From the NCBI GenBank assembly GCA_964016885.1, contig OZ024748.1:12028001-12092000 (forward strand): a stretch of 64,000 bases of DNA, read 5' to 3'. This document shows, one piece after another, positions 5,163 through 57,147 of this stretch. Source of the DNA: Eledone cirrhosa (taxonomy: Eukaryota). Below the pieces are notes generated by a model. It did no database searches and was not told the DNA's origin. It saw nothing but the letters and a program-made list of their open reading frames with translations. The stretch's first letter is position 1, and each line of letters opens with the position of its first letter. Both the position numbers and the translations under genes were made by a program.

Positions 5163-5228
5163 TTAATATAGATGAGATTCTACAGGACTAGAACTGTTTC
5201 ATTCTTTAGAAATCATCAGGAATCTCCT

Positions 5229-5278
5229 GATTCCTGATGATTTCTAAAGAATGAAACAGTTCTAGTCCTGTAGAATCT
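5229..5278 (+). ncRNA. Hammerhead-like fold in the palindromic element 5159-5360
   Basis: GATTC-CTGATGA-TTTCTAAAGAAT-GAAACAG-TTCTAGTC-CTGTA|GAATC. Stems I and III pair; the base of stem II is atypical (T-T). Confidence 0.6.
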
Positions 5279-5360
5279 CATCTATATTAAAACTTTTATA
5301 CTCTGCAATGTATTGAGTACCTTACTTACTGTGGTTACCTCCGATTCAACCCGGAATAAC

Positions 5361-10594: not shown

Positions 10595-10798
10595 ATAGGA
10601 ACGAGTAGGACCCCGACGGCTGAGCTCAAGCCGTTTCGACGGCTAATTCTGGACTAATTCGAGTCCAGAATTAGCCGTCGAAACGGCTTGAACTCAGCCG
10701 TCGGGGTCCTACTCGTTCCTATTACCCACTATACTACCCTAAGTATTGAGTACTTTGGTGCGTTATGGTCCACCTGGTTCCTTACCACATTTCCTTCG

Positions 10799-13949: not shown

Positions 13950-14131
13950 CAGAATGGAGGTGGTAAAAACCGGTTAGACCAATACTCACCAGAGTACTCG
14001 AATACTTGACGCAGTAGAGTGAGTAATATGAAAAATTCGGGGCCCGACGGCTGAGCTCCGGCTGTTTCAACGACTAGATCCGAACGTTGTTGAAACAGTC
14101 GGAGCTCAGCCGTCGGGTCCCGAATTTTTCA
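13950..14131. mobile_element. Family B palindromic element (relative of family A)
   Basis: Arms GAAAAATTCGGGGCCCGACGGCTGAGCTCCG.../...CGGAGCTCAGCCGTCGGGTCCCGAATTTTTC. Confidence 0.7.
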
Positions 14132-36385: not shown

Positions 36386-36570
36386 AACAAAGAGGGTGTG
36401 GTAAGATACCAGGTGGACCATAACCCACCAGAGTACTCAATACGTAGAGTAGGTATTAGGAAAAAGAGTCAGGAACCCGAGCTCGGGCCGTTTCGACAGC
36501 TAAATGCGAACACTTCGGATCTAGCTGTCGAAATGGCCCGAGCTCATCTGTCGGGGTCCTGACTCTTTTT
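36386..36570. mobile_element. Family B palindromic element
   Basis: AAAAAGAGTCAGGAACCCGA...TCGGGGTCCTGACTCTTTTT inverted arms; tail carries GTACTCAATAC. Further fragments at ~27945-28101. Confidence 0.7.
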
Positions 36571-43482: not shown

Positions 43483-43679
43483 ACGAAGGAAATGTGGTAA
43501 GGAACCAGGTGGACCATAACACACCAAAGTACTCAATACTTAGGGTAGTAGAGTGGGTAATAGGAACGAGTAGGACCCCGACGGCTGAGCTCAAGCCATT
43601 TCGACGGCTAATTCTGGACGTCCAGAATTAGCCGTCGAAACGGCTTGAGCTCAGCCGTCGGGGTCCTACTCGTTCCTAT
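43481..43679. mobile_element. Family A palindromic element (opposite orientation)
   Basis: Near-perfect palindrome centred on CTGGAC|GTCCAG (~43619), flanked by (TA)n. Confidence 0.75.
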
Positions 43680-48441: not shown

Positions 48442-48933
48442 AAACAACAGAAGGCTAGGTTGAGGATATCCTTTTACAGTTTTAATGTTGCAAAAAAGCA
48501 CAATACATATTTCAATGGCCAAGTTACATCATCCGATCATGCCGCAAGACCTAGACGACATCGTCAGGTGTAGATTGTATAATTAGTTAATCAATAAAAG
48601 GAAGTACAGCAAACACAAACAGAAAACATATAATTTATCCGGAGATGGCTCGGTGTTATTGTTTCGGTGAACATAAATGGTTAACTCCGTTCCTGCACGA
48701 ACCACGGCATTGGAAATTTACAATGGATGAGTTGCATAACTTAGAGTGTTTTTCTTACTATTACATCATGGTTTATTAACCGGAATAACCAGTTCTACCC
48801 ATTAGTATGTATGTTATAAAGAGGCTGGACCCGACAACTGAGCTGTTGTTTCAAAAGCTAGTTCCAGTCTGGAACTAATATCGAATACTCTGTTGAATAA
48901 TGATCTAACTAGTTTTAAACAGGTTCTATCCAG

Positions 48934-55801: not shown

Positions 55802-55840
<39 letters not shown>

Positions 55841-55847
55841 AGAGTCA

Positions 55848-55952
55848 GGACCCCGACGGCTGAGCTCCGGCCGTTTCGACAGCTATATTCGAATTAAGCC
55901 ACCAGTGTTAGAACCGCGGGCATCTAGCTGAACTTATCAAGGGGTACAGTCC
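55848..55952 (-). ncRNA. Type I hammerhead ribozyme, U3-A8 core variant, with extended stem II
   Basis: Minus strand: GGACTGTACCCC-TTGATAA-GTTCAGCTA...TAGCTGTC-GAAAC-GGCCGGAGCTCAGCC-GTC|GGGGTCC. Stem I CCCC/GGGG plus GGAC/GTCC, stem II CAGCTA/TAGCTG, stem III ACGGC/GCCGT, GUC triplet. Confidence 0.75.
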
Positions 55953-55987
55953 ATATATCGGCATGCAGTCAAAGCAATAATGTGTAT

Positions 55988-56040
<53 letters not shown>

Positions 56041-56173
56041 CTCACAGGATCATCAGACAAAACTATTGTCTGATGATGATGATACTGTGAGTGCAAATGT
56101 GAAACTCCAGAGTAACAAGACACGCCACATACCCATAATAAAGAATACACACACACACACACACACCCACACC

Positions 56174-56927: not shown

Positions 56928-57117
56928 GCCGCTTCTCGGCCTTTTGACTAAGATAAAAGCGAAGTTTCTGTTCTTATCAGCTTAATATCTGATATGGTCC
57001 CTATATGGGACTATCGATATTAAACTGATTTTTAGAACTAGGCAAAGAGTTAGGGGTTTGCTCCACCTTTGCCACGGGTTGGCCTGGTATTGCAGTACTT
57101 CCAGGATTCAGCCCATC
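56928..57117 (+). ncRNA. U2: U2 snRNA, full-length divergent copy (variant or pseudogene)
   Basis: CGCTTCTCGGCCTTTTG..TAAGAT..TCTGTTCTTATCAGCTTAATATCTGAT, Sm-like site GATTTTTAG (57027-57035), stem III GGCAAAG/CTTTGCC, stem IV loop TATTGCAGTA. The branch-pairing GTAGTA is replaced by GAAGTT. Confidence 0.9.
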
Positions 57118-57147
57118 TCCCACTTTGGATATATAAAGAAGATTAGA

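Follow-up and report, generated by a model that had tools for sequence, protein, structure and literature searches.

The window, by which is meant the whole 64,000-nt stretch of DNA that was analysed, comes from a 3.0-Gb genome and carries the first coding exon of an engrailed-type gene (19302-21762), to which the motif names EH1 and EH2 apply. This first exon is very long and of low complexity and is followed by an intron of about 46 kb; the homeobox exon lies on the plus strand 3.5 kb past the window, so the feature described below is intronic and antisense to the host gene. Some 170 kb beyond, the opposite strand carries a second C-terminal signature of engrailed type (L383, L384). Within the intron, a short minus-strand insertion between two (TA)n stretches (Table 1) is almost certainly what remains, after truncation and decay, of the 3′ end of a Hydra-clade Penelope-like retrotransposon (PLE). 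It is matched at 90–93% identity over 130–140 nt by 30 genomic loci, which are those fetched, the window itself aside, of 40 scored among 1,503 candidates from a DNA search.

Table 1. Features of the window; positions with a sign are counted from the predicted cleavage site, negative numbers lying before it
Feature	Position	Strand	Basis or remark
Engrailed-type first coding exon (host)	19302..21762	+	open frame from 19302, donor after 21762
Whole insertion: 5′-truncated 3′ end (pLTR and short tail) of a family-B Hydra-clade PLE	55837..55977	-	
(TA)n target, 3′ flank	55806..55836	.	sequence
(TA)n target, 5′ flank; 14 nt between (TA)n and element	55991..56034	.	sequence
Stem I, 5′ strand ACCCC	55941..55945	-	paired in 10–11 of 11 subfamily representatives
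First core box U3 U4 G5 A6 U7 A8 A9	55934..55940	-	sequence and genome counts
Stem II, 5′ strand: G10.1, two unpaired U, CAGCUA	55925..55933	-	sequence, fold
Stem II extension and loop, 39 nt	55886..55924	-	sequence, fold, subfamily comparison
TYAGTY motif in stem II loop	55892..55897	-	end mapping, family comparison
Stem II, 3′ strand: UAGCUG, bulge partner U, C11.1	55878..55885	-	sequence, fold
Second core box G12 A13 A14 A15.1	55874..55877	-	sequence
Stem III, 5 bp, 9-nt loop with palindrome GAGCUC (55867-55862)	55856..55874	-	sequence, fold
Predicted cleavage site, after C17 of GUC (GUC = 55857-55855)	55854..55855	-	hammerhead numbering
Stem I, 3′ strand GGGGU, and short (+17) tail joined to (TA)n	55837..55854	-	3′-end mapping
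Family-A inverted pair of half-hammerheads (core span)	10608..10709	.	5′ ends at −41 and −43
Family-A inverted pair of half-hammerheads (core span)	29529..29613	.	
Family-A inverted pair of half-hammerheads (core span)	43573..43666	.	
Family-B inverted pair of half-hammerheads	36462..36569	.	5′ end at −41
Family-B half-hammerhead	27936..27997	-	5′ end at −41

The assignment of the element rests on its longer relatives. Longer family-B copies run upstream into a GIY-YIG/RT remnant; family B survives as remnants only, 65–75% identical to family A in the linker and endonuclease. At one locus (L093) a homologous ORF remnant lies about 1 kb upstream of the family-B hammerhead, and shorter pieces are found at three others (L094, L097, L099), so that four of the eight aligned family-B loci reach the ORF, the remaining loci being truncated earlier. 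Young relatives have a 3.54-kb (3,543-nt) unit with a 719-aa RT and GIY-YIG ORF, which starts 191 nt after the cleavage site and is followed by a 1.2-kb 3′ UTR. The young family-A ORF contains RWR (37), DKT (117), YRDD (348), CxCX5C (572), VIY..YIG (591), CxxC (670), and CxH (698) and lacks GxKF, in agreement with the Hydra-clade motifs defined, together with (TA)n targets, in section 11 of PMC8557442; by eye it also aligns with Hydra proteins in that paper's supplement. Pfam and PDB searches with the ORF or the ORF alignment returned no match and nothing informative. Hydra-clade PLEs as described in PMC8557442 share with the window lineage the GIY-YIG endonuclease, RW[K/R], DKT, the CxCX5C linker, CxxC, CxH and the lack of GxKF, as well as (TA)n targets, a hammerhead near the 3′ end, inverted 5′ arms and a tail at one end. 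Remnants of more distant Hydra-type PLE families (29–46% identity) lie near family-B copies at L006, L038, and L050.

On the window minus strand, positions 55952-55848 form a type I hammerhead motif with a U3-A8 core, located in the PLE pLTR and, in this lineage, with a palindromic loop 3. GGACTGTACCCC (55952-55941) is followed by TTGATAA (55940-55934); stem II consists of CAGCTA (55930-55925) and TAGCTG (55885-55880) with exactly 39 nt between; and the 3′ half comprises GAAA (55877-55874), stem III, and GTC/GGGGTCC, the slash marking the predicted cleavage site. An earlier interpretation made from the letters alone (the sequence-only reading) had described these parts at these positions, with about 40 nt of extra sequence in stem II, and the sequence bears it out. 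The same reading took stem I to be GGAC/GTCC, a pairing that is absent from family A; ACCCC/GGGGT is invariant across subfamilies and is the better reading. The hammerhead core boxes YUGANRA, GAAA, and NUH occur in order, with three helices, both ends in stem I, and a G10.1-C11.1 pair; G10.1 directly follows A9 with no extra base, and stem III, at 5 bp, is not minimal. The motif is more than a chance occurrence. A hammerhead descriptor gave three hits in the window, this one and two weak AU-rich ones, and none in 60 shuffles. Across subfamily representatives 89% of helix cells are paired (98% in stem III) vs 27–48% in slid controls, a lenient comparison in that the structure was drawn from those same sequences; the second stem II pair is A-U in family B vs G-C in family A. 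Folding of the reverse complement gave a result that depends on context: in 126 nt with flanks the three helices are already present in the lowest-energy fold (−30.8 kcal/mol), and constraining the hammerhead gives −30.0 kcal/mol, a cost of 0.8 kcal/mol, whereas the 111-nt stretch folded alone does not adopt the hammerhead (z = +1.1). As regards a stem I/loop II tertiary contact, the fold has an extended stem I with an internal loop and an extended stem II with a bulge, for which we identified no covarying partner. Rfam scans of the window and region returned no hammerhead family among 18 matches at E <= 10, likely because of the long stem II.

The enlarged stem II is a property of the whole lineage. 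All subfamilies carry an insert of 37–39 nt beyond the 6-bp helix, which places A9 and G12 54–56 nt apart, and the sequence of the insert turns over across subfamilies except near its 3′ side. The sequence-only reading had called this domain unusual, and it has no counterpart among 54 hammerheads recovered from 43 of 77 related metagenome loci: all are C3-G8, one being a hit on the opposite strand, and their A9-G12 distance is 10–29 nt in 53 and about 35 in one doubtful hit. Stem II is GC-rich in family B and much stronger there than the AU-rich stem II of family A. Among 11 hand-picked subfamily representatives, 4 of its 11 pairs show changes on both sides; the covariation score was reached by 7 of 500 shuffles, though it is inflated by related sequences, and the number of both-sided pairs, also inflated by kinship, does not exceed that in shuffles (428 of 500).

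Genome-wide, the 3′ half of the motif has 53,881 exact matches and the 5′ half 6,068, so about nine in ten relatives are without a 5′ half. Within family B the counts are 3,416 and 285, the latter from an exact 20-mer of the 5′ half whose reversed control has no match; family A contributes 4,024 complete hammerhead motifs. The window copy had been described as the only intact one, and it is indeed the sole A/B copy with a 5′ half in the window (1 of 11 arms); in the genome, where full-length copies were looked for, about 6,000 keep that half. In one fixed 22-nt context, to which these counts apply, the 6,068 matches divide into 4,486 U3-A8, 1,511 C3.A8, 59 U3.G8, and 12 C3-G8, the last two numbers being taken from the full list of 71. 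Position 7 occurs as all four bases in a core box that is otherwise fixed, which is the variation a hammerhead should show. U3-A8 is thus the lineage majority and not decay of the window copy, as the sequence-only reading had argued; its further claim that the 3-8 pair is preserved holds for this copy and the majority but not for the C3.A8 and U3.G8 copies, which form coherent subfamilies with their own diagnostic loops. The U3-A8 core itself is already published for PLE hammerheads, with about 1,300 U3-A8 hits in Schistosoma (PMC4209133), and is described as a natural active covariation in PMC3088659.

A tree of 125 of the 203 motifs, those with the required 250 nt of homologous upstream sequence and including some duplicates from overlapping loci, is ladder-like. 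It is midpoint-rooted with no outgroup, and the window copy is too short to be included. The root separates family B and the U3.G8 group from the rest, in which the C3.A8 subfamilies branch off in successive, supported steps; nested within them are the copies with the shortest end branches, again U3-A8, and divergence from the subfamily majority drops in tree order (0.067, 0.042, 0.035, 0.023). On this ordering C3.A8 was apparently a long stage of an active lineage that later returned to U3-A8; most likely the lineage kept replicating with a weakened core and then regained the 3-8 pair. In another PLE hammerhead the single changes C3G and G8C abolish cleavage (PMC11167929). Literature searches returned no natural C3.A8 core, which does not establish its absence from print.

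The half-copies begin within the enlarged stem II, which the sequence-only reading had overlooked. The sample comprised 120 arms at 70 loci, chosen among the first 100 matches listed, with the window added. Of these arms, 113 have their 5′ end 24–51 nt before the cleavage site and 32 at −40/−41; only three end between −52 and −88, the ends falling off past −41 with a shoulder to −45 in family A. Ten listed full-length matches were left out of this sample, the proportion with them being 113 of 130, and the two arms of one inverted pair are not independent. In a family-B sample of 30 loci, 37 of 39 arms end at −30 to −54 with the mode at −41 (11 of the 39 arms, three of which belong to family A) and a minor second edge at −54. 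The modal 5′ end, −41, is the A of TTAGT/TCAGT (55895 in the window); all subfamilies retain the TYAGT letters, including those that have lost the hairpin partner (6 of 11 representatives form the inner pair), and the −40/−41 pile-up is present in old and young subfamilies alike. Two candidate explanations were rejected: a splice acceptor at TTTAG, since many ends take in the AG and upstream bases, and a separate short SINE-like master, since the stop does not move in copies that bear the ORF or from one subfamily to another.

The same stop is seen in copies that carry leader and ORF, 304 such junctions being present in the genome. Of 79 junction arms studied at 89 loci, 39 extend past −100 through a whole hammerhead, and 16 of the other 40 end in −47..−24 (expected 5.3); that these copies stop at the same place makes the stop a property of the full-length template. 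A second 5′-end cluster coincides with the predicted cleavage site, 7 of the 19 ends in −23..+80 lying within 3 nt of it (expected 1.3); two of the seven have G-run microhomology, and the cluster could reflect pausing at stem III. The windows of these junction-end tests were chosen after an earlier array had been seen. At seven loci the element interior (+157 to +917) is joined forward to −38..−44, joints that we interpret, from their sequence, as template switches from the −41 region. In contigs of another sequencing run, of unrecorded kind, these bases are again the point of joining, and depth changes 16-fold across them, the depth ratios resembling genome copy numbers and carrying nothing on expression. 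The 3′ ends of copies peak at +17 (103 of 346) and +97 (96 of 346), and all genomic copies span the predicted cleavage site. Close inverted pairs combine one short with one longer tail in 40 cases of 40, and 101 of 124 half arms follow an inverted arm; none of the 124 shows an end-to-end duplication of the 41-nt repeat discussed below.

Tandem arrangements of the lineage also occur. Head-to-tail arrays of full-length units lie at G000:C1:91476610-91487431, C1:437200348-437210966, and C2:320551593-320558706, with a period of 3,531–3,544 nt and 99.8% identity between the two units compared. A further array (L223; G000:C2:356028500-356034000) has seven units of 299 nt, each derived by internal deletion; its PLE ends lie in (TA)n, and it has a hammerhead in its six complete junctions and a loop II shortened by a deletion ending at −41; judged by its sequence, it is a retrozyme-like array made from the window element's lineage.

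A pile-up that is one-sided, falls on the same base in GC-rich and AU-rich stem II, and lies beyond the helix is best read as the end of a template. TYAGTY, whose A is the modal end, resembles an Initiator, and an Inr-like TCACT has been noted in a rotifer pLTR. PLE transcription is known to start in the pLTR (PMC2377424, PMC6765202), and these known starts together with the Initiator-like motif suggest that the template end is a transcription start. We therefore lean toward the joint reading that the insertion is a PLE end with a type I hammerhead whose loop II likely holds the transcription start; taken by itself, a start inside loop II is probable, and transfer through a ribozyme-defined repeat can be put forward only tentatively. 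A TATA-like stretch in loop II, 29–31 nt before −41, is present in some family-A subfamilies, the youngest ones, and is not used as support because it is missing from family B. Inspection of the leader did not reveal the downstream promoter motif of Drosophila Penelope. Non-templated G shows no excess at −41 ends (8 of 26, vs 10 of 36 at −40 and 7 of 24 at −38), in a test for cap-derived G made on 5′ ends that are trimmed at joints.

A transcript starting in loop II would carry half a hammerhead, the 3′ half, at its 5′ end and a whole one at its 3′ end; the whole one would trim the RNA 3′ end and leave a 41-nt terminal repeat. Reverse transcription, with primers at +17 and +97, would reach the template end at −41, two such cDNAs joined together would give the palindromic half-copies, transfer to the 3′ repeat would give long copies, and repeated transfer would give tandems. 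The +17 and +97 peaks match the two internal sites at which RT starts in an anole PLE (PMC11167929). Against transfer, its correct form through a terminal repeat leaves no trace and none is seen, and uncut read-through RNA or circles explain long copies equally well. Exchange of partners between the two ends of the RNA, followed by cutting or circularisation, might also be made possible by the long stem II. Cleavage was likely helpful to the lineage and not essential, and a dispensable cleavage would explain the C3.A8 stage; for the anole PLE, PMC11167929 reports that insertion in vitro went ahead with mutated hammerheads and that the cleavage site was not the start of any read. It is possible, if rather doubtful, that all parts hold jointly: a promoter start nested in stem II, a split 5′ and a whole 3′ hammerhead, a 41-nt repeat, and strong-stop transfer, with the ~50,000 half-hammerhead palindromes being integrated strong-stop products and the C3.A8 stage a long one.

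Two alternatives account for the same ends. The start may lie in loop II with no strand transfer, long copies arising from uncut read-through of tandem masters and the hammerhead being mostly idle or parasitic; this is unlikely, yet it deserves the most serious consideration among the rivals, because near-identical tandem arrays exist (3,543-nt units, 99.8% alike), the 1,511 C3.A8 copies and a smaller U3.G8 set were amplified, hammerhead mutants of another PLE showed no block on insertion in vitro (PMC11167929), and Naiad PLEs thrive without hammerheads. It does not readily explain why the remaining core and all three helices are intact across subfamilies, why stem II changed on both sides at 4 of 11 pairs, or why the youngest subfamilies are back to U3-A8; 5′ ends also cluster at the predicted cleavage site, and new tandems need an origin, for which switches from −41 are seen. 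With lower probability still, RT stalls on folded stem II of circular or multimeric RNA and no transcription start is involved. A rolling-circle model has been published for PLE hammerheads (PMC4209133), the multi-unit arrays, among them the 7 × 299-nt array with its hammerhead in six complete junctions, agree with such copying, and the cap-G test is negative. Against stalling, the 3′ strand of stem II is already copied where the ends fall, and that place is AU-rich and weakly paired and is not the helix base; GC-rich family B and AU-rich family A have the same modal base, the edge is one-sided, and TYAGT persists in subfamilies without its hairpin partner (6 of 11 form the inner pair).

Pyrimidine-A steps (U/A, C/A) in loops are labile, and the end does fall at U/A or C/A in a loop with no cap signature, so a cut of the RNA at such a step in loop II, by nuclease or spontaneous hydrolysis, could make the 5′ end; this is improbable, as other unpaired UA/CA steps of the same loop lack peaks (3 of 120 arms, −52 to −88) and conservation extends over five or six letters instead of the two of such a step. 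The least probable alternative, to which we give hardly any credence, is one that the sequence-only reading implied, namely that the window copy works as a ribozyme, is under selection, and has a role in the host. Its core and helices are intact, the modelled fold can be adopted, and it sits in an intron of a developmental gene, but it is antisense to the host transcript and has hundreds of equivalent copies in the genome. It differs from the family-B majority at six internal positions and a junction base, which is the level of its siblings (mean 6.7%), and the differences include one stem II pair and the start motif (G>A at 55894). The copy itself, being old, antisense to the host transcript, and mutated in its start motif, is likely inert and is ordinary decayed transposon DNA.

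Returning to the reading in which loop II probably holds the start, the lineage can be set beside several known systems. The hammerhead table of PMC8557442 gives CUGANGA in 26 of 26 Hydra rows with a loop 2 of 10 nt or less, whereas the window lineage has U3-A8 or C3.A8, its insert is 37–39 nt long, its stem III is stable, and its 3.54-kb unit includes a 3′ UTR of 1.2 kb. Its unit is 3,543 nt vs generally <3 kb in the Hydra clade, and its hammerhead is not canonical-short; length and hammerhead type describe the clade, whereas protein motifs define it. None of five window-lineage motifs was matched in the PMC8557442 supplement. Minimal hammerheads of Cercyon PLEs of Schistosoma mansoni (PMC4209133) resemble those described here in U3-A8, pLTR location, G10.1-C11.1, a short stem I, a palindromic loop 3, and mostly single truncated copies; the window lineage differs in its 5-bp stem III, the lack of an extra base between A9 and G10.1, and a stem II that spans 54–56 nt, and a stem III of 5 bp could, by its length, work as a monomer. 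Poseidon PAc of Anolis (PMC11167929) likewise has two internal RT starts that set the tail, with the hammerhead upstream of them, and nicks both strands of AT-rich DNA; its ORF starts in stem II, whereas the window lineage has the putative RNA start there and begins its ORF 191 nt past the cleavage site. A long loop 2 (about 29–35 nt) is also found in PLE-X1_sMoe and PLE-X1_sTam of spike mosses, which differ in being C3-G8, endonuclease-less, and rDNA-specific, and for which the table in PMC8557442 proposes no role of the loop.

Non-LTR retrozymes are tandems of short type I hammerhead units proposed to derive from PLE pLTRs (10.64898/2026.07.22.740005), which the 299-nt array resembles; the window copy is a single truncated PLE end and shows no tandem of short, ORF-less units with a hammerhead in each, the feature by which retrozymes are recognized. 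The proposed priming near the 5′ end, run-off, and transfer through a short repeat would work like first-strand transfer in LTR retrotransposons and retroviruses. First-strand transfer in these goes through the R region. The window lineage differs in being target-primed with no tRNA primer, in that no integrase or RNase H is seen, and in the ribozyme-set 3′ end proposed for it. The literature searched reports no start site inside a PLE hammerhead and no PLE strong-stop transfer, which does not establish absence from print. As far as that search extends, it is new that template ends coincide with loop II, and so is the C3.A8 stage, although supplements of PMC4209133, PMC11167929, and 10.64898/2026.07.22.740005 may show similar variants.

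The function of PLE hammerheads and the making of tandem and inverted insertions are described as open questions in the literature consulted. For these questions the window lineage preserves cDNA ends by the tens of thousands, each placed to the single base; it also offers masters that are young and intact, a time series of natural core variants (U-A, C.A, U.G), and, at L223, the birth of a retrozyme-like array. A start inside loop II, if true, would help explain what PLE hammerheads are for.

Other small-RNA-like features lie in the window, in which repeat finders were swamped by microsatellites. More divergent A/B half-hammerhead relatives are found at 14026-14130, as an inverted pair, and at 48820-48900. 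An unrelated minimal hammerhead-like motif on the minus strand (13809-13765) has a U3-A8 core (TTGAGAA), a 4-bp stem II, and a palindromic stem III; an inverted pair of short CUGAUGA hammerhead-like motifs, similar to ordinary Hydra hammerheads, occupies both strands at 5175-5280; and a decayed CUGAUGA...GAAAC motif with a disrupted stem II lies on the plus strand, the host sense strand, at 56062-56122, 100 nt from the insertion. In a U2 snRNA copy (56928-57121, plus strand; 151 bits), the region that pairs with the branch point has gained a base and carries substitutions; short direct repeats precede this copy, which is likely a pseudogene.
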